Assembly: GCA_048882325.1 (NCBI GenBank)
Contig: JBHLRS010000062.1
Span: 1-13,702 of the forward strand
Length of the DNA stretch: 13,702 nt
Direction: 5' to 3'
Source: Candidatus Thorarchaeota archaeon
GTDB taxonomy: Archaea > Asgardarchaeota > Thorarchaeia > Thorarchaeales > Thorarchaeaceae
Below, piece after piece: positions 1 to 13,426 of this stretch. Both the position numbers and the translations under genes were made by a program. The notes beneath the pieces are model-generated. The model was not told the origin of the DNA. It saw nothing but the letters and a program-made list of their open reading frames with translations, and ran no database searches. How positions within the stretch are numbered: position 1 is the stretch's first letter; every line of letters starts with the position of its first letter.

Positions 1-2144
1 GGATTATCAATATCATACCAACCAGACCCGTCCCAAAATTGGATTAACACTTCTTCACCTGCAAGAGGTGGTGTGCCGCCAAGATATGTTAGTACTCCTT
101 GAATATCAAAAAGGGTTTCATCCACATATAGTTGAGTGGGAGCTGTGATCGCTATCTCGAGATAGTATCTCTGAAGCTGAATCTGTGGTGCGATTGAGCT
201 AAAAGCATTATCATAAATCGGTGTCCAGGAGGTCCAATTCACAAGAACGTCTATAGAACCAGGATTATCCTGAGTCGGTGTGCAGTTGTAGAGCATTTGG
301 TAGTATCCAAATGCATCGGTCTTTTTCTGGAAGACAAATGTCCCAGTTGCATTGACCCAGTGAATATAGACAATCTCAGATGCGATGGGAGTACCATTCG
401 CGAACTGGAGAAAACCATAGAGTAGAACGGTTTCATTAACGTAGTAGGTCCCGAAGTCCTCCTGAATCGATATGAGGGTACCAGTGGCAACAACATCAAG
501 TGGTACAAGTGAGGACTGGCCATCATAGACATTATAGTATGGAGATGAGTAGTTTGCCCAAATGGTGACTGTTTCGGTGGCTTGTCCTATTGGAATTGTG
601 TATTGATGTAGATATCCGCCGGTGGAGTTAGTCATAACGCTTCCAATATAGAAGACTCCAGTGCTATTCTGTAACCAGAAATCTACCCACTGATTTGCCA
701 ATGGTAGTGAGAACTCCGAAAGCGACAGATTACCTTGTATATCGATTGGCTGGAGCAAGAACACAGGATTAGGAGTGACAAAGATTGGATCTAGGGAAAC
801 ATCGAACTTCTTCACGGTTAGGAATCGATGGATTGATTCGCAACTTGCCAGTGTCGGTGAAAGCGACGTGAAGTTTGACCAGTACTCAACCAGACCATCA
901 TCAGAATCCAGAAGTGTATAGTTCAACTCGTAATATCCATCTGGGGCCGTGAGAACAGAACCCAAGTGAATCAAGGACCCATTGTTCCACCAGATATCCA
1001 CCCATTGACCTCCAATACCAGTACCATTAGAAACATGTGTCAAATATCCAAAGATTGTGATATTATAGCCAACATAGTATGGATCAGGCAACCATTGATT
1101 GATTGAGAGCTGGGTACCACTAGAACCAACATTGATTGGGATATAGGTACTCCAGTTCCCCGCAATAAGAGGCCATGGAGAACTCCAGTTGGCATAGGCG
1201 AAGTAGGTTCCATCAGGTTGACTGACTGGTATTGTGTAACTCCAAGTGAACCCGCCAGTAGCGTTCAGGCCGCGTGTTGTGTTTGCCTGCGAGTGAAAGA
1301 ACACACCAACCTGTTGGCCCATAGGCAATACTGTGCCATTAAGGAAATAGACCACCCCATCATAGTCTATTGTTGACCCTGCAGGAACATCGGTTGGAAG
1401 TACTGTGAGATTAAAGCCCACTCTTCCCCATACCTCTGTCGTCGAGTTATCGCCAGAACGAGCCTCATTCAAACGAGGTATACCGTATTGGTCCCAGTCA
1501 CCCAAGTACCAAGACCAGACCTCATGGTCACCAACTGTCATTAAAGCGAGGGCTAAGGGATCCACGTAGATATCAAGCTCGTAGTACCCGTACTCATCAA
1601 TTGAAGCATTGCCCATGAACGTGTTGCCCCAGTAGATACCGATGTTACGATTATCGTATTTTGAACTATTGACAGGGACTCCTCCTACCTTCATTGTACC
1701 ATAGACATGGATAGTGTCCTCCCAGAATGCAAAATGAGTATCCACACCCTGACTCACATTGAGCTGCCTGGTTTCGCTCAGGACAAACCCATCAACTCCA
1801 GATGGGGGTGAGGGAGATGAGTCAGGATTAGGTGTTCCCACCGCAAAGATGGCAGTGCGGTTTGTAATAGAGAAATTGGCAGCAGTCCACGTTGCCGCAA
1901 TGATGTGATAATCCACAGTCGCATTTGATGGAAAGACGTAGGTCACATTGGCTATTGGTTTGTCTGGTGATTGGCCTATAGTTTGAACGCCAATGAACTC
2001 GGTGTCGGTTTCGTCATAGAAAGTGATGGTTTCAGGAGTTGTGACTGGAACACCATCGACAGTGATGTTCGCACTCAGCATGAAGGGAGTTCCAATCTGT
2101 TCCCAGGGTTGTCCATTAGATGGCCAGACGTTAAGCTGAACATT
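1..2144 (-). repeat. At least 7 degenerate protein-level Ig-like/beta-sandwich repeats (~100-110 aa each) within the surface protein
   Basis: Recurring pattern P..Y/F(V)G..I.I.G.L....G.P/G.....V.I.W.N......G...T...G.Y...YT.P......G.....AN(W/Y/F)(S/T)S. Approximate units: 2144-1840, 1766-1430, 1420-1125, 1115-812, 806-485, 479-175, 164-<1. A Pro/Ser linker GTPNPDSSPSPPSG lies at ~1795-1840. Not obviously repetitive at DNA level. Confidence 0.7.
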
Positions 2145-3431
2145 GGGTATTGGTGCGTTGGTTGGGACTTCATCGCCGCCCATATCACTAGGTAATGCCA
2201 AAGGAACGACCTGAATCCATTCCCCTTCGGTGGCTCCGGACATTGGTATAAAGACTTCTGACCAGAATGCCATATGTCTGACCTTGAGGGTTCTGTAGGA
2301 ATAGGTGGGATCAGCCTCTCCAACCGCATATCCCAAGGTCAATCGAGCTGGAATACCAAGTCCACGCATGAAGACACAGTAGGCAGTGGCAAAGTCCATC
2401 GGGAGTCCACCACCACGCTCTAGGAACCAGTCAGTGACCTCTTGACCAGCCGGTGGTCTCTCGAGGGAAGTGTAGGTGAGGTTGAACGTGGTCTGGAAGT
2501 AGAGATTCACAGCCATTGCAGTCTCATAAGCATTGTTCCCAACTCCAATGAACTGTGAGATGTTGTCTTGGACTCGCTGGGTGAGTGGGTCAGGTAAGTC
2601 CAGATAGACATCTGCCCAGCCTGGAGCAGAGGAGCCGGGTTGTGCATTTGCAGCAACATTAGCAAGGTCTTGGGTATCATAGGATAGCTGGAATGTAACG
2701 ATGACCTCCTCTCCAGTGGTTCCCTGAATGAATGGAGTGAAGAGAAGTGTATTGTAGGCGTCAGTTTCTAGATCATAGTCAAGTAGACGACCAGGGTCAG
2801 GGTAAGGATTTCCGTTCCCATCTATACTCCAGGTCACGAATGAGTCCTCAATGACTCTCAGGTCAGGATGAAGTGAAGGAAGCTCGATTGCCCCAACATT
2901 GGCTCCAGCTGTGGCGTTGAAGACAACTGTATAGATCTCGTTGGTTGCCTCACCGGTGGAGATAAGCTGTGTAAGGGCATCTAAAGGAATTGTGCCAATC
3001 TGGGTCTTCCCCCAATGTGCTCCGTCGTATGAATCATACGCCCCCACCCGCCATAGTTGCGGCGGGTCCGCTGGCGCTACTGTAAAGATGATGTTGTCCA
3101 GCTGGTCTAGTATGTCATCCGGTAGCTGTTGGTCGAGAGGGACATCTGTGTAATTGACATTGTCAAACCAGTTTGTCCTTCCTCCTGCAAACTGGTTATC
3201 ATAGGGCCAATATGGGATGTACTCGTACGGAAAATGAGGACTATAATCACGATTTGCCCCCCATTGAACAATCGCAAAATTATAGGTTGCCCAAACGAGA
3301 CTGGCGACTATGAAGATTGAGCTGATGAGGGTAGTAAGACCCATTCTTCTGCGGGAAGTTCTTGTTGCGGCGCTCACTGGACTAATCCTCTTATTCACCA
3401 TTTGGGAGATTTGGCGTGTCGTATAACTCAT
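1..3431 (-). CDS. Large membrane-anchored surface glycoprotein: N-terminal TM helix, TgpA/DUF3488-like segment, degenerate transglutaminase-like domain, tandem Ig-like repeats (3' end outside the window)
   Basis: Absent from the ORF track. Manual translation shows no stop from ATG 3431 (upstream in-frame TAA at 3444-3446) to base 1, i.e. 1143 codons; alternative starts are ATG 3401 and GTG 3398/3377. N-terminus MSYTTRQISQMVNKRISPVSAATRTSRRR, then hydrophobic MGLTTLISSIFIVASLVWATYNFAIVQW. It has LWRVGAYDSYDGAHW (TgpA-type WR...YD.YDG..W), DWFLERGGGLPMDFATAYCVFMRGLGIPARLTLGY...AFWSEVFI...EWIQVVP (transglutaminase core pattern), and then beta-rich ~100-110 aa repeats. Confidence 0.9.
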   Translation of the reverse strand, partial: MSYTTRQISQMVNKRISPVSAATRTSRRRMGLTTLISSIFIVASLVWATYNFAIVQWGANRDYSPHFPYEYIPYWPYDNQFAGGRTNWFDNVNYTDVPLDQQLPDDILDQLDNIIFTVAPADPPQLWRVGAYDSYDGAHWGKTQIGTIPLDALTQLISTGEATNEIYTVVFNATAGANVGAIELPSLHPDLRVIEDSFVTWSIDGNGNPYPDPGRLLDYDLETDAYNTLLFTPFIQGTTGEEVIVTFQLSYDTQDLANVAANAQPGSSAPGWADVYLDLPDPLTQRVQDNISQFIGVGNNAYETAMAVNLYFQTTFNLTYTSLERPPAGQEVTDWFLERGGGLPMDFATAYCVFMRGLGIPARLTLGYAVGEADPTYSYRTLKVRHMAFWSEVFIPMSGATEGEWIQVVPLALPSDMGGDEVPTNAPIPNVQLNVWPSNGQPWEQIGTPFMLSANITVDGVPVTTPETITFYDETDTEFIGVQTIGQSPDKPIANVTYVFPSNATVDYHIIAATWTAANFSITNRTAIFAVGTPNPDSSPSPPSGVDGFVLSETRQLNVSQGVDTHFAFWEDTIHVYGTMKVGGVPVNSSKYDNRNIGIYWGNTFMGNASIDEYGYYELDIYVDPLALALMTVGDHEVWSWYLGDWDQYGIPRLNEARSGDNSTTEVWGRVGFNLTVLPTDVPAGSTIDYDGVVYFLNGTVLPMGQQVGVFFHSQANTTRGLNATGGFTWSYTIPVSQPDGTYFAYANWSSPWPLIAGNWSTYIPINVGSSGTQLSINQWLPDPYYVGYNITIFGYLTHVSNGTGIGGQWVDIWWNNGSLIHLGSVLTAPDGYYELNYTLLDSDDGLVEYWSNFTSLSPTLASCESIHRFLTVKKFDVSLDPIFVTPNPVFLLQPIDIQGNLSLSEFSLPLANQWVDFWLQNSTGVFYIGSVMTNSTGGYLHQYTIPIGQATETVTIWANYSSPYYNVYDGQSSLVPLDVVATGTLISIQEDFGTYYVNETVLLYGFLQFANGTPIASEIVYIHWVNATGTFVFQKKTDAFGYYQMLYNCTPTQDNPGSIDVLVNWTSWTPIYDNAFSSIAPQIQLQRYYLEIAITAPTQLYVDETLFDIQGVLTYLGGTPPLAGEEVLIQFWDGSGWYDIDN

Positions 3432-3597
3432 GGTGGAGGCGAGTTACTCTCAAACGTCCTTTCCTAGCAATTAAAGGGTTGCTCAGCTGAACTCAATCTT
3501 GTTTATCGAAAGTAACTTGGCGAAAGAAACACCAGTAAATCACTATATTTGATGGTGTATAATAAGCACAACCACATAATAACAAGAGGTCAGCACA

Positions 3598-6604: not shown

Positions 6605-7591
6605 ATGAAGATGTCAAGTAAGGAACTCCGGCAAAGGGCAAAGGAACTGGCAAAGGAGTACGGATATCTCCAATACATGATTGAACGTTATCTATCGCTT
6701 TGGGGCGAAGAGGACACTCTGAGGTTCATTGAGGCTTGTGAGCAACAAATCAGAACTTCAATTCGAGTGAACACACTGAGATCGTCAGTGGGTGAAGTGA
6801 TTCACAGACTTCAAGGGAAAGGGGTCACACTTGACGAAGTGCCTTGGTTAGAGGAGGGCTTCTATGCTGACTTCAATAGTACTTCTCCAGGTGCCCTACT
6901 TGAACACATGTTGGGATTCTACTACATACAGGGAGTTCCCTCCATGACTGCTGTTTCTGTGCTGAATCCACAGCCAGGAGACATAGTCTTGGATCTGGCT
7001 GCTGCCCCAGGAGGAAAGACAACCCACATCGCTCAGTTAATGCGGAACGAAGGCATGGCCATAGCAATCGAACAGGACAGGCAACGCATGGCTAGTCTTC
7101 AAAGTAACATAATCAGGTGTGGCGCTACGAACACTCTTGTACTCCGTGGAGACGCGAGAAAGCTTGGTAGTATCCCCTTCGAGCCAAATAAGATTCTCCT
7201 AGATGCACCCTGTTCTGGAGAGGGACTCATTCCTCTGGATCCAACGAGAAAGACAAGTAAGACCATGGCTGACATTAGATTTTGCGCAACAAGAGAAGAT
7301 GAGATGCTAGAGGCTGCTGTCAATATCTTAGCCAATGACGGTACTATGGTTTACTCAACTTGCTCCATTGCTCCTGAGGAGAACGAATACATTGTAGATG
7401 ATATTCTAAAACGACATCCTGAGATGAGAGTAATGGAAATCACGACTGAGTTTGGTTCCCCTGGTTATTCTGACCCTTATGGTATCAAACTGAATGAGTC
7501 TTTGAAATTGTCAAGAAGATTTCTGCCTCATCTTCACGGAACTGAGGGGTTCTTCATCTGCAAACTGAAGAAGGAGGACAGCTCAGAATGA
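6605..7591 (+). CDS. RsmB/Nop2/NSUN family RNA cytosine-C5 methyltransferase
   Basis: IRVNTLR, YYIQG, motif I DLAAAPGGKT, motif IV LLDAPCSGEG, motif VI YSTCSIAPEENE and PHLHGTEGFF. Both catalytic cysteines are intact. Confidence 0.93.
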   Translation: MKMSSKELRQRAKELAKEYGYLQYMIERYLSLWGEEDTLRFIEACEQQIRTSIRVNTLRSSVGEVIHRLQGKGVTLDEVPWLEEGFYADFNSTSPGALLEHMLGFYYIQGVPSMTAVSVLNPQPGDIVLDLAAAPGGKTTHIAQLMRNEGMAIAIEQDRQRMASLQSNIIRCGATNTLVLRGDARKLGSIPFEPNKILLDAPCSGEGLIPLDPTRKTSKTMADIRFCATREDEMLEAAVNILANDGTMVYSTCSIAPEENEYIVDDILKRHPEMRVMEITTEFGSPGYSDPYGIKLNESLKLSRRFLPHLHGTEGFFICKLKKEDSSE

Positions 7592-8130
7592 AGATAGAGC
7601 TTGTAGATCCAGTTGATTGGGGCTCTATCATAGAGCAGGTTGACGTCGAGTTTGGAGCAGGAGTGATCAAGATACTTCTTGGAAATCGAGTGCCTGTAGT
7701 GATGGCTAGAGGGAGTACCAGAATCTTCTATGCAATTCCGACAGAGTGGATGTCGAGTCTTATTGAGAACGTGAATTTACTTGATATCCAGTTTATTGGT
7801 AAGGAGCTCGGCTCAATCGAAAAGGGAAGATTCAGACTTAGCTTGCAAATCCTGAGTGAATTGGCTGAAATCACTGATAGTTACTTGATAGTTTCTAGAC
7901 AAGGTGCAGAAGCCTTCACATATGGGAGGAGCATCATCAGAGAGTCTGTGAAGGAATTGAACACATCACTTGTGAGAGGTCAGAGGGTACTTGTGCTAAA
8001 TGAGAAAAGAGAGTGCCTTGGAATAGCAGCGCTCTCTGTAGATGCGGCAAAACTCACTCGACTTGGAGGAGACAGACTGGTTGCTAAGAATCTTGTAGAC
8101 ATAGGTTGGTTCATAAGACGCCTGGGTTAG
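7588..8130 (+). CDS. Nip7-like PUA-domain ribosome biogenesis protein
   Basis: 180 aa with G.ELG..EKGRFRL, AEAFTYGRSI, V.VLNE..ECLG.A and C-terminal NLVDIGWFIRR, typical of archaeal Nip7. ATGA overlap with the methyltransferase stop; AAGGAGG SD at 7571-7577. Confidence 0.78.
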   Translation: MKIELVDPVDWGSIIEQVDVEFGAGVIKILLGNRVPVVMARGSTRIFYAIPTEWMSSLIENVNLLDIQFIGKELGSIEKGRFRLSLQILSELAEITDSYLIVSRQGAEAFTYGRSIIRESVKELNTSLVRGQRVLVLNEKRECLGIAALSVDAAKLTRLGGDRLVAKNLVDIGWFIRRLG

Positions 8131-8873
8131 ACGAACATGTCGCTTGAACGGTCTGAGTCCTCGATTGATTTTCTCATTTTCTCGAGTCGTTCTATCTCAC
8201 GAGACTCCTCCAGAAGTTGCTCCACATTGGCTCCAACTCCATAGATATCATTGATTTTTTCGAGCATTGTTGCTGCGGACCGTGGATCGGGGCGACCTCT
8301 AGTTGCGTATGTGAGAAGGCCGATTGCTGGAGCCCCATGCATCTCAAGCTCAGCCAGGAACAGCGCCAGCGGACCTGCAACAAACAGACCTTCCTCAAGA
8401 AGTGGTACCTTCCATTTTTCAAGCATCTCCTTGTATGCAGTTGTGGGAACACAACGCATTTCCTCTTCATCCTCTTTGAATGATGCATCGAGCCCTCCGA
8501 GAAGCAAGGTCTCTTTGAATTTGTTCTCAGCTACCCAGCTTGCTAGTTTGTCGATGAATCCCCATTGCTCGGACTGGTGTGGTTGAAACCGAGGAACTAG
8601 GAAGATCATCTTCTTCTTTTTGTAGGAATAGAGTTCGAATGGTAAAACAAGACGTTCATTCTCCATAGAAACGAAGAGTGGAAGCATATCACTCTTGATG
8701 AACCCGACGCGATCAGCATCTAGGGTCCGGGTCAAATGTGCAGTGCTCAGAAATCCTACTTCACCTAGACCATGAAATCCACAGATGAAGGTGGATCCGG
8801 GTTCAATCTTGAAGTCCTTCTTCAGGATGATTTTGAAAGATGAATCAGTTGTAGCTACGAAAGCCATGACCAT
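8127..8873 (-). CDS. PAC2-family archaeal proteasome assembly chaperone/activator (PbaA/PbaB-like)
   Basis: ICGFHGLGEVGFL, LPFELY, LLLGGL, GPLALFL, RPDPRSAA, V..L.EE...IE coiled tail and C-terminal MFV (HbYX-like). GAGG SD on the minus strand at 8879-8882. Its stop overlaps the Nip7 stop (8127-8130). Confidence 0.88.
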   Translation of the reverse strand: MVMAFVATTDSSFKIILKKDFKIEPGSTFICGFHGLGEVGFLSTAHLTRTLDADRVGFIKSDMLPLFVSMENERLVLPFELYSYKKKKMIFLVPRFQPHQSEQWGFIDKLASWVAENKFKETLLLGGLDASFKEDEEEMRCVPTTAYKEMLEKWKVPLLEEGLFVAGPLALFLAELEMHGAPAIGLLTYATRGRPDPRSAATMLEKINDIYGVGANVEQLLEESREIERLEKMRKSIEDSDRSSDMFV

Positions 8874-9120: not shown

Positions 9121-11340
9121 TTGATGGAGCGGGATTATTTGAGCACCCTAAGGGAACTAGAACTTCAACAGGTTGCTCCCCGTTTGTTGGAGTTACTCAG
9201 AAGGCAGGGACTTGCCACACTCACTAGATTTCAGTCCGCTTCAGTTCAACAAGGTATTATGAGGGGGATTAGTCAGTTATTAGTGACCTATGACTATAAT
9301 GAGGCATATATGGTAGGTGAGATTGCACTCCTCAACCGTGTTGCTTCTGACCACAGAGCAAGGGCGATAGTACTCTGTCCTCACCCTCACCAAGCGGAGA
9401 GGCGGTTTCGGTCATTAAGTCAGAAATGCAGTCGTTTGGGCATCGAGGCTTCAGAGATTATCCGTAGAAGGACTGCAACCACAGAAGGAGCAGGTTCAGG
9501 TAGAGTGGTTGTTGCAACATATGCATCAATGGATATTGCATCACGTGTAAACCCAGAAATTCTTGATGGTGTGGTCTACGTACTGATTGATCGACTTGAC
9601 CTCATTGGACAGCCACGTATTGGAGCGCGGCTCGAAACAGTTCTTGTGACATTATTAGGTCATGCAGATGTTCAGTATGCAGCAATCTGTCCTCCTCTTG
9701 AAGACATGGACGAATTGGGCACCTGGCTGGATGCAGAGATAGTGGAAGATCCGAAAGCAGATGTGAAACTGATTTTTAGTGTGAAAACCTTTGAGGACTC
9801 GGATGATTCAGTTGCAGATTTGACCGAATTTGTCACACGAAAGCAGGGACAGGTGATGATTCTCTGTTCTAATATTGCAACCTGCGAGGATTTTGCGGTT
9901 CAACTGGCCGGAATTGAAACAGGGAACAAGACCACAGCTGCAAATCTCAGACTGGCTCCTGAATACAGAGATGACCTTAGACATCTCTCACTTGACATAA
10001 AGAAGTGGTATAGCCAATGCGAAAACACAGTAAAGCTTAGCAAGGTAATCACAAAAGGGATCGCTTTCATCCATGAGGGAGTCGGAATGATCCAGAGAAG
10101 GACCATCTCTGAGGCATGGGAGGATGGTCTTCTACCTGTCATTGTGATGCCAACACGCTTTGCTATTGCAAGTGGTCTGAGGGCTACTGTCGTGTTCTTG
10201 ATGGGCGTGTTCATGCAGGAACTCGGCAAGGATGCCTCTCAGGAGGAATCAGTCACTATGTTGTCTGAGTGGCAGCTGAGTGATGTTCTTGAAGCAGCTG
10301 GCAGAAGGGGAATTGACAATGAAGCATTTGGAATCGTTGTGGTAGACAATGCGTCTGAGAGGGGTCGGGTTCTAAGCAAGTATTTCGAAGAGGACCAAAG
10401 AGGAAATCTAAAGGCAAGACTTGGTGAAGTTGACAGCGTAATGGATGAAACTGAGAATGTTCAAGACTTAGTTTTGCGTCAACTGTGTGGAAAATCTGGA
10501 AAAGGTGATGATCCCTTCTCAATCATTGATCGTACATTCTGGGGAAGTAGCAGTCTTGTGACTGACGTCAGACAAGCGGAAAAGCCAGATGAGTCATCAG
10601 TAGAGAAGCTCCTGACACTCCGTTCAACGAGGTCCACATCTTCCAGAGCGCAGGATATACCTGATTCAAGTGTGAAACTCACGACAGTAAGACCTGACAA
10701 GATAGAAGGTCTTGTACACAGCGGGAGCAGGGAGATATGGCACTATACAACACTGAAGGCGAAAGACGGTGTTTCATGTTCATGCGAGTCATGGAAATAT
10801 CAGGGTATACGAAAACACAGACTTTGCAAACATCTTATCAAGTTCGCCCGATTCGCAATGAATGAAGATGATACAAAACCCTATGCAGCAGGAGTGATAA
10901 TGCAGGCACTTCGAGGTCTTGAAGTATTCGGGGAGTTAGAGGCAGACAAGCTCATAATTCGTGATGAGAAAAGCACAAGATGTACGGAATTGGGAAAGGA
11001 TATTGCAGTTCTTGGAGTTCCTGTTAAAGACACCAAGAGAGTGATGAATGCAATCGCTGATGAGAAGAGTGACTTGAAGACAATCCTAAGGAATGTGGTC
11101 CTGACTCAAACAACCATTCCAAAGGATGTTGTGAAGCGTGTCCTGGATAAACTCCCTGCGAAGACCATTGAGGACATAATCTGTGAAGATGACATGCCAG
11201 GAATTGTCGAGAACTGTCTGGAAGAACTGGAATATGTAAACTCAATCCTACTGAAACTCCTCAAATCTAAACATCCAGCAAAGGAGGAGAGTAGGAAGCT
11301 TGGACAGAGTCTTCTTGCTCTTCTTGAGCCCATGAAGTAA
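9121..11340 (+). CDS. Catalytically degenerate Hel308/Ski2-like SF2 helicase with an inserted SWIM zinc finger
   Basis: Collinear with Hel308: Q-motif (GLATLTRFQ), motif Ia (AIVLCP), VVVATY, IDRLDLIG..R.GARLE, ELGTWLDAE, GIAFIHEG...R..I.EAW.DG.L.VIV, AAGRRGID, and the WH signature CTELGK.IA. SWIM motif CSC-x13-CKH at 10777-10833. TTG 9121 or ATG 9124 start. Confidence 0.82.
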   Translation: MMERDYLSTLRELELQQVAPRLLELLRRQGLATLTRFQSASVQQGIMRGISQLLVTYDYNEAYMVGEIALLNRVASDHRARAIVLCPHPHQAERRFRSLSQKCSRLGIEASEIIRRRTATTEGAGSGRVVVATYASMDIASRVNPEILDGVVYVLIDRLDLIGQPRIGARLETVLVTLLGHADVQYAAICPPLEDMDELGTWLDAEIVEDPKADVKLIFSVKTFEDSDDSVADLTEFVTRKQGQVMILCSNIATCEDFAVQLAGIETGNKTTAANLRLAPEYRDDLRHLSLDIKKWYSQCENTVKLSKVITKGIAFIHEGVGMIQRRTISEAWEDGLLPVIVMPTRFAIASGLRATVVFLMGVFMQELGKDASQEESVTMLSEWQLSDVLEAAGRRGIDNEAFGIVVVDNASERGRVLSKYFEEDQRGNLKARLGEVDSVMDETENVQDLVLRQLCGKSGKGDDPFSIIDRTFWGSSSLVTDVRQAEKPDESSVEKLLTLRSTRSTSSRAQDIPDSSVKLTTVRPDKIEGLVHSGSREIWHYTTLKAKDGVSCSCESWKYQGIRKHRLCKHLIKFARFAMNEDDTKPYAAGVIMQALRGLEVFGELEADKLIIRDEKSTRCTELGKDIAVLGVPVKDTKRVMNAIADEKSDLKTILRNVVLTQTTIPKDVVKRVLDKLPAKTIEDIICEDDMPGIVENCLEELEYVNSILLKLLKSKHPAKEESRKLGQSLLALLEPMK

Positions 11341-11410
11341 CATTTTTACGTGAGTAGACTCGTGGCGGCTCAAACCCAGGGTGTTGCTGACCCTGAGCGG
11401 TGGTTGACCA

Positions 11411-12556
11411 ATGAAGTTGTTTGAACATGAGGCTAAGGACATCTTCCGAGCCTTCAAGATGCCAACGCCTACAGGCGGTGTCGCTCGAACGCCAAAAGAG
11501 GCGAAAGAACGTGCTGCCGAGGTTGGAAAGCCTGTTGTCGTAAAGGCGATGGTTCTTGCGGGTAAACGGGGAAAGGCTGGAGGTGTGAAGTTCGCAGACA
11601 CCCCACAGGATGCAGAGAAGCGTGCTGAAGAGATTCTGAGAATGCGTATCAATGACTTGCCAGTTGAAGCGGTCTTAATTGAGGAAAAACTGGACATTCA
11701 ACAGGAGATCTATGCTGGAATCACCATTGACAGGAATGAACGCAAGTATGTCATAATCGGTAGTGCGGCTGGAGGAATGTCAATCGAAGAGCTCGCAGAG
11801 GAGAGTCCTGAAAAAATCATCAAAATGCATGTAGACCCCGGACTAGGTTTTCAGCCGTTTGAAGCTAGACAGATGGCTATTGCCATGGGTTTCAAGGGCA
11901 AGCAAATCAATCAGCTTGGAAGCTTCTTCCTGAGATTGTGGGAGATTGTCGAAACTTATGATGTAGAACTCACTGAGATTAACCCACTTATTCTTACGAA
12001 GGATGGTAGGTTCTTTGCTGCTGATGCTAGATTGAATATCGATGATAACTCACTATTCAGACACAAAGCAATCATCGAGCGGCTCAAACGTGAACCTGTC
12101 GAACAGAATGAGCGGGAGAGATTGGCCTCAGAGAACGATATGGCATATGTTGAACTAGAAGGAAATATCGCTTGCATCTGTAATGGTGCAGGACTTACTA
12201 TGGCGACCCTTGATGCTGTGTCACTCTACGGCGGCGAGGCGAGTACATTCCTTGATTTAGGAGGAGGAGCAGATGCAGAGCGGGTTGAGAAGGGCATTGA
12301 GATAGCGCTCATGTATCCCAATGTAAAGGCAATCTTGGTCAACATAATGGGAGGCATCACAAGATGCGATGAGGTGGCTAAGGGCATATTAGCAGCGAGA
12401 AAAGACGGAGATATCACTGCACCGATGGTGATTCGCATGGTTGGAACCAACGAGGAAGAAGGCCAAGCCATCCTGAATAAAGCAGGGATACCATTTTTGA
12501 AGACGATGGAAGAAGCTGCCTCGAAAGTGGTCGAGCTCGTGAAGGAGGTTACTTAG
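11411..12556 (+). CDS. sucC: Succinyl-CoA synthetase (NDP-forming) beta subunit
   Basis: MKLFEHEAK, GKRGKAGGVK, SAAGGMSIEE, EINPL, DDNSLFRH, NGAGLTMATLD, FLDLGGGA, NIMGGITRCDEVA and R..GTNEEEG. GGTGG SD at 11399-11403. Confidence 0.96.
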   Translation: MKLFEHEAKDIFRAFKMPTPTGGVARTPKEAKERAAEVGKPVVVKAMVLAGKRGKAGGVKFADTPQDAEKRAEEILRMRINDLPVEAVLIEEKLDIQQEIYAGITIDRNERKYVIIGSAAGGMSIEELAEESPEKIIKMHVDPGLGFQPFEARQMAIAMGFKGKQINQLGSFFLRLWEIVETYDVELTEINPLILTKDGRFFAADARLNIDDNSLFRHKAIIERLKREPVEQNERERLASENDMAYVELEGNIACICNGAGLTMATLDAVSLYGGEASTFLDLGGGADAERVEKGIEIALMYPNVKAILVNIMGGITRCDEVAKGILAARKDGDITAPMVIRMVGTNEEEGQAILNKAGIPFLKTMEEAASKVVELVKEVT

Positions 12557-13426
12557 ATGGCAGTTCTAGTTGACAAAGACACTAAGGTCATTGTTCAAGG
12601 AATCACTGGAGGACAGGGAACGTTTCACTCCGCAGCGATGTTAGAGTATGGCACCAAGATTGTTGCTGGAGTGACTCCTGGAAAATCTGGACAAGAGGTC
12701 AACGGAGTTCCTGTCTTTGATAGTGTGATTGACGCAAAAGAGGACACAGGAGCAAATGCTTCAATCATCTTTGTTCCAGCACCGTTTGCAGGCGACGCGG
12801 CTCTTGAAGCGATTGCTGCGGATCTTAATCCGGTGGTTCTAATTACAGAGCATGTTCCCGTAAAGGATGAAATTAAACTGATTCACGCTGCAAAAGCGAA
12901 GGGAATTACGGTTATTGGGCCAAACACACCCGGAGTCATCACACCCGGGGTAAAGCAGAAAGTTGGCATAATGCCTGGACATGTCTTCTCACATGGCGAA
13001 GTAGGACTCATGTCCCGAAGTGGTACACTGACCTATGAGATCGCAGCAGGAATGACTAATGCAGGTATTGGAATATCCACAGCCATAGGTCTCGGAGGAG
13101 ACCCGTGTGTTGGACTCACTACAATTGAGGCTGTTAGACTCTTCAAAGGAGACAAAGACACCAAGGCATTGGTCTTAGTGGGTGAGATTGGCGGCGATGC
13201 AGAGGAACGTGCTGCAGTCTATATCAAGAAAGAGTATGACCTTCCAGTCGTCGGATTCATCGCTGGGAGGACTGCGCCACCTGGAAAACGTATGGGACAT
13301 GCTGGAGCAATCATCAGTGGAAGTTCAGGAACTGCAGCTGCAAAGGTCAAAGCACTCAATGATGCAGGAGTTGCAGTGGCGGAGAAACCAAGTGATGTTG
13401 CTAGGCTCCTTAAGGAAGCAATGTAA
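12557..13426 (+). CDS. sucD: Succinyl-CoA synthetase alpha subunit
   Basis: VIVQGITG, GVTPGK, IGPNTPG, SRSGTLTYE, GEIGG and APPGKRMGHAGA (phospho-His). AGGAGGT SD at 12543-12549; abuts the sucC stop. Confidence 0.97.
   Translation: MAVLVDKDTKVIVQGITGGQGTFHSAAMLEYGTKIVAGVTPGKSGQEVNGVPVFDSVIDAKEDTGANASIIFVPAPFAGDAALEAIAADLNPVVLITEHVPVKDEIKLIHAAKAKGITVIGPNTPGVITPGVKQKVGIMPGHVFSHGEVGLMSRSGTLTYEIAAGMTNAGIGISTAIGLGGDPCVGLTTIEAVRLFKGDKDTKALVLVGEIGGDAEERAAVYIKKEYDLPVVGFIAGRTAPPGKRMGHAGAIISGSSGTAAAKVKALNDAGVAVAEKPSDVARLLKEAM

Follow-up and report, generated by a model that had tools for sequence, protein, structure and literature searches.

The 13,702-nt stretch of Thorarchaeota DNA analysed here (the window; contig C62 of its genome) carries on its plus strand a long open reading frame (ORF; 9121-11340) that appears to encode an ATPase-dead, non-catalytic paralogue of the DNA helicase Hel308 with a SWIM module inserted into its winged-helix (WH) domain. 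Related proteins, most of them with intact ATPase motifs, occur across the Asgard archaea, and many of their genes lie close to RadA-family and repair genes. With a probability of roughly 0.6, we explain the gene as a non-catalytic paralogue within this SWIM-Hel308 family, acting as a non-motor adaptor, competitor or regulator in the recombination/repair pathway of the active enzyme.

The SWIM insert and the replaced motor motifs

Read from TTG 9121, the gene codes for 739 aa, and residues are numbered on that reading throughout. The likelier start is ATG 9124, and the gene call on record begins at residue 7. The N-terminal 435 residues resemble archaeal Hel308/Hjm (NCBIfam Hel308, E 4.8e-23; PDB 2zj2, E 4.5e-18). 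With the Hel308 equivalog NF040935 the protein scores 81.2 bits, over residues 16-437 only and below the cut-off of 1200 bits. The ring fold of RecA1, RecA2, winged helix and ratchet is present, and the solved structures nearest in fold are the DNA helicases Hjm, Hel308 and Pol theta, followed by Brr2 and Mtr4.

The ATPase motifs are not intact, with NEAY, DRLD and DVLEAAGR where GKT, DExH and QxxGRAGR are expected. In the alignments, VTYDYNEAY replaces PTxSGKT at the former Walker A (motif I; 9283-9309; plus strand, as for all features of this gene), IDRLD replaces DEIH/DEIQ at the former motif II (9586-9600), and the DVLEAAGRR part of QLSDVLEAAGRR replaces HQxLGRAGRP at the degenerate motif VI (10273-10308). 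The replacements are themselves conserved across 9 Thorarchaeal genera. Because motifs I, II and VI are replaced, a Pfam scan of the window protein found no DEAD or Helicase_C match, though its relatives match both. Hel308/Hjm (PDB 2zj2, 2va8, 2p6r) is the best match in sequence and in structure, sharing RecA1, RecA2, the winged helix and the ratchet ring. Unlike it, the window protein has lost motifs I, II, III and VI, carries the SWIM insert of about 125 residues, has a shortened ratchet and lacks domain 5. On these alignments we regard it as an ATPase-dead and probably non-catalytic Hel308-like paralogue.

The motif VSCSCESWKYQGIRKHRLCKH lies at aa 551-571. An earlier, sequence-only reading of the window had placed a CxC-x13-CxH ligand set at aa 553-571, and translation of the ORF confirmed it: C553, C555, C569 and H571 (CSCESWKYQGIRKHRLCKH; 10777-10833) lie in a basic loop with a net charge of +4 in 19 aa. 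Pfam SWIM (PF04434) is the best domain match and the sole one around the motif, as that reading would have it, although the scores of 16.6 bits for the whole protein and 18.5 bits for aa 436-665 fall just under the gathering cut-off of 19.6. Scores of 21.5 and 27.7 bits were obtained with homologous inserts from relatives, the latter in a Baldrarchaeial member, and SWIM is the sole Pfam family that recurs among 20 aligned inserts (8/20 match at E <=0.01; best E 4.4e-07). The Cys/His set had been expected to be conserved in orthologues. All four ligands are indeed invariant in 23 Thorarchaeota orthologues, as well as in 19 full-length relatives (~20% identity; 21 invariant columns in all) and in the 20 aligned inserts (6 invariant columns in all).

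The point of insertion was located by profile alignment. The match between the family profile and Hjm breaks at residue 450 and restarts at 458, with ~118 profile positions (472-590) left unmatched; with Sso Hel308, it breaks at 467 and restarts at 476. The same gap was seen with a profile of the WH-SWIM region alone and in a direct alignment to the canonical Hel308 of the genome. These alignments show that the SWIM module is a true insertion, placed in the loop between H2 and H3 of the winged helix (domain 3). The insert proper covers about aa 475-600 (10543-10920), or about 125 residues; the span first assigned to it, 10560-11030, contains the insert and also takes in the C-terminal half of the winged helix.

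The fold was predicted with AlphaFold2 (AF2). A first model from 23 close orthologues was poor (predicted local distance difference test, pLDDT, 61) and was replaced by a model from 61 diverse sequences, which we accepted (mean pLDDT 86.6; predicted template modelling score, pTM, 0.85). In this model, the winged helix consists of H1 (444-456), H2 (465-479), H3 (602-608) and a wing hairpin (612-621), and the insert consists of three linker helices (483-511), four strands (518-553) and helices at 556-565, 570-581 and 586-596. The layout is that of a SWIM module, with the strands at 518-553 and the CxH-bearing helix at 570-581 in a block with a pLDDT of 74-94. Profile alignments, model and motif alignments thus bear out the claim that a SWIM module is inserted within the winged-helix domain of a dead Hel308.

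Along the gene, the N-terminal half of the winged-helix domain (H1 and H2; aa 436-474; 10426-10542) aligns to Hjm 406-450 and is followed by the ascending linker of the insert (aa 475-512; 10543-10656). This linker is the least conserved part (column identity 0.63), partly disordered in the model (478-487, pLDDT <50) and helical after that. The SWIM module itself (aa 513-585; 10657-10875), as delimited by Pfam and the model, comprises four beta strands, the predicted Zn knuckle and a helix. Positions 10876-10986 encode the return helix (aa 586-600), which closes the insert, and then H3 and the wing as the C-terminal half of the winged helix; this segment aligns to Hjm from 458 and to Sso Hel308 476-527. 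Past the wing, the model shows a helical ratchet-like domain up to the C-terminus, which is shortened in the alignment to canonical Hel308 (aa 623-739; 10987-11337). The match to Hjm stops at about residue 640-657 of 720. The helix-hairpin-helix domain 5 is missing, as the alignment ends earlier and the Pfam scan gave no HHH_5 match; relatives carry Pfam Helicase_dom4_arc, and some of them HHH_5.

An accessory module in the same domain is known from Mtr4 and Ski2, in which an adaptor-binding arch domain is inserted in the winged helix (PMC10946056, PMC4731217). Both are Ski2-like helicases whose module has ascending helices, a small beta-rich globule and descending helices, and the insert of our protein resembles it in layout. 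Unlike the arch, with its stalk and KOW barrel, the insert described here holds a SWIM module and is much shorter, and Mtr4 and Ski2 are eukaryotic RNA helicases. Accessory modules have thus entered the winged helix of Ski2-like helicases outside the eukaryotic Mtr4/Ski2 lineage too.

An Asgard-wide family with active and dead copies

A search with the C-terminal 300 residues found the dead type in 79/85 genomes of the window's GTDB family, whose public name is Thorarchaeota. Weaker matches were found in ORFs of 725-850 aa from other Asgard families, which have CxC...CxH at the same place and intact GKT, DEIH/DEIQ and GRAGR motifs. The Pfam architecture of these active relatives is DEAD, Helicase_C, SWIM and Helicase_dom4_arc, with or without HHH_5. 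With a profile of the WH-SWIM region, strong full-length matches (E <1e-24) were obtained in 21/33 Asgard families sampled. In a phmmer search with aa 440-739 against 1.84 billion representatives, every named protein among the 23 matches was from Asgard archaea, and a word-index search returned 3 proteins. All scores of the feature search in the ESM Atlas were <0.8. The shape search there gave a single cluster with an alignment across the insert (665 residues in all), which is commonest in Thorarchaeota and is presumably the active paralogue; the other clusters were ordinary Hel308-like proteins.

All publicly named relatives are Asgard (Thor-, Hod-, Odin-, Baldr-, Ran- and Promethearchaeota), which agrees with the phyletic range suggested beforehand. 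The SWIM finger had also been taken for a feature peculiar to the dead protein, and this did not hold up: the insert is family-wide, and most members have intact ATPase motifs. It marks an Asgard-wide, mostly catalytically intact Hel308-like clade, is ancestral to that clade and is no trait of the dead protein as such. The architecture had been thought undescribed, and our literature searches found no description of a SWIM module in a Hel308/Ski2-like or Asgard context. A survey of archaeal Ski2-like helicases that includes 75 Asgard genomes makes no mention of a SWIM clade (PMC10946056).

Four Ski2-like genes are present in the window's genome: the dead SWIM copy on C62, an active SWIM copy on contig C11, a canonical Hel308 adjoining MCM on C9, and an ASH-Ski2-like helicase on C10. 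The last of these (873 aa; 820-3441 of locus L004, genome G000) has an N-terminal Cys cluster and a C-terminal DUF5814, in agreement with the ASH-Ski2 helicases reported in Asgard genomes (PMC10946056). Both SWIM copies were found in 5/5 Thorarchaeal genomes examined in detail, the window's genome counted; f2, the sister family, and ten further Asgard genomes that were examined have one SWIM copy each. The active enzymes, such as the C11 paralogue and the Baldrarchaeial P0158, share with the dead copy the place of insertion and the four ligands, and fall with it into one clade as against canonical Hel308. Unlike the dead copy, they keep GKT, DEIH/DEIQ and GRAGR, many of them lie in RadA/XPG/FEN/XPD clusters, and some have domain 5.

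With canonical Hel308 as the root of the tree, the SWIM proteins fall into one clade. The active Thorarchaeal copy groups with the f2 copy (support 100), and the dead clade, on a very long stem (2.02), is placed with Hod-, Odin- and Ranarchaeal sequences (98 in the Shimodaira-Hasegawa-like approximate likelihood ratio test, SH-aLRT). A Thorarchaeal-specific duplication was not rejected by the approximately unbiased (AU) test (p 0.46). The dead copy has a 13-residue knuckle and a WK[FY] motif in common with the Hod-, Odin- and Baldrarchaeal proteins, and the active Thorarchaeal, f2 and f16 copies have a 10-residue knuckle. The shared 13-residue knuckle favours the grouping of the dead copy with the Hod-, Odin- and Ranarchaeal proteins over a duplication specific to Thorarchaeota.

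The ATPase motifs of the Hod-, Odin- and Ranarchaeal members are partly eroded. In the Odinarchaeial P0136 (593 aa; locus L068, 7001-8782), motif I reads TPMSCWEL, motif II DYLH and motif VI ASLGIN, while the SWIM ligands are kept. This protein represents a second, independent ATPase loss in the family, and ATPase decay is a trend in the group formed by the Hod-, Odin- and Ranarchaeal proteins and the dead copy.

Selection on the dead copy was estimated from a comparison with ten same-genus orthologues, which gave a mean dN of 0.13, a dS of about 2 (saturated) and a dN/dS of about 0.06. Within the protein, dN is lowest (0.078) and column identity highest (0.83) in the SWIM module. The dN/dS of about 0.06, together with the low dN of the SWIM module, indicates that the dead protein is in use; it is under strong purifying selection, with the SWIM module as its most constrained part.

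Gene neighbourhoods and the possible role of the dead copy

The active copy on C11 lies in a co-directional series of genes for XPD, a 199-aa ORF, an unknown protein of 781 aa, the helicase, an unknown protein of 546 aa, a KaiC/AAA_25-like protein of 244 aa, an unknown protein of 321 aa, a Rad51-like protein of 239 aa and XPG/FEN. The stop of the 781-aa gene overlaps the helicase start, and an additional Rad51 match lies at the contig end. The cluster (locus L069; G000, 86000-102520; ORFs 2681-15735, minus strand) comprises at least 10 genes. The same order is found in another Thorarchaeal genus (L071), where a 354-aa RecA/Rad51-family protein comes first, and in f2 (L072), the sister family, with XPD and a RadA-type protein (HhH + Rad51, 211 bits). 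In f16, the gene order after the helicase is a 139-aa ORF, a Rad51-like protein of 268 aa (within 7 kb of the helicase), an unknown protein of 446 aa, a TPR protein and XPG/FEN. Rad51-family matches were located 0.4-7 kb from the SWIM helicase in f19, f14, f18 and f21, and one about 9 kb away in f4. XPG lies 4-12 kb from it in f19, f14 and f18, and also within 12 kb in f16.

Altogether, RadA-family genes are found within about 7 kb of active copies in seven Asgard families, usually together with XPG/FEN, and with XPD in the Thorarchaeal order; some of these RadA-family neighbours are degenerate. With 3-12 matches per genome of 2.3-6 Mb, the chance of a Rad51-family match within 7 kb of a given gene is about 1-3%. 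PADLOC detected no known defence system in the C11 cluster and gave generic helicase-core matches only (HamB and BrxH, and DinG for XPD). Five proteins of the cluster have neither a Pfam nor a PADLOC match, and the cluster may be an undescribed recombination/repair module. The RadA/XPG/XPD neighbourhoods tie the SWIM-helicase family to recombination and repair, and we read the family best as a recombination/repair branch of Hel308 with a platform added to its substrate-recognition domain.

Both the length of recombination tracts and the repair of forks are under the control of Hel308/HELQ and the RAD51 paralogues. The coupling of the helicase to the paralogues is an open question in eukaryotes, for which the Asgard clade offers a concrete prokaryotic test system: its substrate-recognition domain bears a SWIM platform, its genes show conserved linkage to RadA/XPG/FEN/XPD, and one paralogue is naturally motor-dead and under strong selection. 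The winged-helix domain of Hel308 serves in substrate recognition and is needed for DNA binding and unwinding (PMC13623763). The family would act in recombination or fork repair, with the SWIM-WH unit standing out from the helicase ring and offering a platform for docking or for substrate recognition. The dead Thorarchaeal copy seems to retain ring, wing and SWIM platform and to have lost the motor, so that it would most economically act by binding its target and not translocating. The target would be the same as that of the active enzyme, either a nucleic-acid structure or a partner protein, and the dead copy could thus serve as an adaptor, a decoy/competitor or a regulatory partner in the pathway of that enzyme, akin to the inactive cassette of Brr2. 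This C-terminal cassette is the known precedent for such a role, and it is also the part of Brr2 that matched best in the structural comparison. In contrast to the situation described here, where the dead ring is a separate gene, the dead cassette of Brr2 is fused to an active one and has a Sec63 unit and no SWIM module. The charge of the knuckle is +3 to +4 in the dead clade, on a protein that is acidic overall, and such a basic knuckle would fit a nucleic-acid contact in that clade.

Several observations weigh against a part of the dead copy in the pathway of the active enzyme, or against such a pathway for the family as a whole. The dead copy lies outside the RadA/XPG cluster, in a conserved housekeeping block, and 0/7 Rad51-family matches of the genome are on its contig. 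The members from Odin- and Baldrarchaea, f30 and Loki g60 have no RadA neighbour, and neither has the helicase on the longer Hodarchaeal contig, the Hodarchaeal contig of the genome set being too short to judge. Hod- and Odinarchaea include the nearest relatives outside Thorarchaeota, and the RadA link is thus not universal in the family. Across the family the charge of the knuckle ranges from +6 to -4, which argues against a single ligand shared by all members.

These points have to be set beside the other explanations. The sequence-only reading had proposed a mediator of the Shu2/SWS1 type, in which RadA paralogues dock on the SWIM module of the dead scaffold, with an effect, positive or negative, on RadA filament formation at forks. 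Its link to RadA paralogues gains indirect support at the level of the family, with SWIM helicases of seven Asgard families encoded near RadA-family genes, and falls for the dead copy, since all seven Rad51-family matches of the genome are on other contigs. Shu2/SWS1 proteins share the CxC...CxH motif and, at the family level, the association with RadA/RAD51-family genes; they bind RAD51 paralogues (PMC6316741), as does HELQ, which binds the BCDX2 complex (PMC13623763). However, the CxHxxA signature of Shu2/SWS1 (PMC6316741) lacks its alanine here, where H571+3 is K574, a near-invariant Lys in orthologues and T or K in relatives. No detectable sequence similarity links the two, and the insert profile, when compared with solved structures, matched no SWIM protein. 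Moreover, Shu2/SWS1 are small stand-alone proteins and no helicase inserts, whereas the module described here is embedded in a helicase. A predicted complex of the WH-SWIM region with two RadA-like proteins of the C11 cluster scored 0.17 against a mark of 0.32 and gives no evidence either way. We consider a Shu-like role for this gene rather unlikely. A bolder proposal is that the Asgard helicase unites the HELQ-BCDX2 and SWS1-SWSAP1 axes in one polypeptide, with the SWIM module docking the clustered RadA paralogues and the dead copy as a derived, Shu2-like mediator without a motor; this we think unlikely.

The surroundings of the dead copy might point to RNA instead, with the SWIM-WH platform recruiting RNA or RNA-processing factors and the dead helicase working as a scaffold in ribosome biogenesis or RNA surveillance. 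The gene order around it is CYTH, a PALP enzyme, an RsmB-like methyltransferase, UPF0113 (PUA), PAC2 (divergent), the dead helicase, sucC, sucD, L40e, L38e, beta-CASP, Alba and TruD. This block is kept across three Thorarchaeal genera, and the synteny with RsmB/NOP2-like methyltransferase, UPF0113, L40e, L38e, beta-CASP, Alba, TruD and PTH2, the adaptor domain in the winged helix of Mtr4 and Ski2, and the basic knuckle on an acidic protein would all suit such a scaffold. But the synteny is confined to one taxonomic family with generally conserved gene order, and the genes are not one operon. In addition, DNA helicases (Hjm, Hel308 and Pol theta) come before Brr2 and Mtr4 among the nearest solved folds, and the active relatives adjoin DNA-repair genes. 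An RNA-side role is in our view decidedly unlikely. The suggestion of a substrate adaptor for the proteasome or a ubiquitin-like pathway, also made from the sequence, has as its sole basis the divergent PAC2 homologue 247 bp upstream, which recurs in other Thorarchaeal genomes. It was not borne out, as a 224-aa gene separates PAC2 from the dead helicase in another Thorarchaeal genus, no other proteasome or ubiquitin-like gene is nearby, and the PAC2 context was not seen in the family outside Thorarchaeota; we rate it as very improbable. That the gene is a decaying pseudogene or an annotation artefact could be argued from the loss of all ATPase motifs, but this is refuted by the selection data (dN/dS about 0.06). 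An ORF of about 735 aa is intact in the 79/85 genomes, the replacement motifs are conserved across 9 genera and the fold is predicted with confidence, so that the chance of a pseudogene is negligible. The explanation as a non-motor partner in the pathway of the active SWIM helicase remains the one that we favour.

Neighbouring genes and other SWIM-like proteins

Upstream of the dead helicase (window 6605-8873), the genes for the RsmB/NOP2-like methyltransferase and the UPF0113 PUA protein overlap by 4 nt (stop/start) and are followed by PAC2 on the other strand. All three are eukaryote-like housekeeping genes. At the start of the window (3-3431, minus strand), an ORF of at least 1143 aa runs off the window edge; a membrane anchor at its N-terminus and many N-x-S/T sequons were noted, and Transglut_core and DUF4129 are present in the orthologous neighbour of a relative. 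Downstream of the dead copy lie sucC and sucD (window 9121-13426), and in Baldrarchaeia (L070, 9001-12895) the gene after the active SWIM helicase codes for a CoA-binding/Succ_CoA_lig protein. This resemblance may be an old remnant of synteny or a coincidence.

Modules resembling the insert were also seen outside the helicases. Two loci of family f14 (L030, 3423-4001, minus strand; L031, 3243-3830, plus strand) encode small stand-alone proteins of 192-195 aa in which a winged-helix-like N-terminus is combined with a SWIM-like module (HxC...CxH) similar to the insert. The gene in L030 comes immediately after a 437-aa ORF that, by eye, contains a P-loop of Orc1/Cdc6-like type, and the gene in L031 comes after a 411-aa ORF. 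A 403-aa ORF in genome G002 (L075, 1549-2760, minus strand) has a C-terminal SWIM-like module (HDCADW...CKH) and an N-terminal part that, by eye, has a DUF72-type look; similar ORFs of 400-440 aa were matched in several Asgard genomes.

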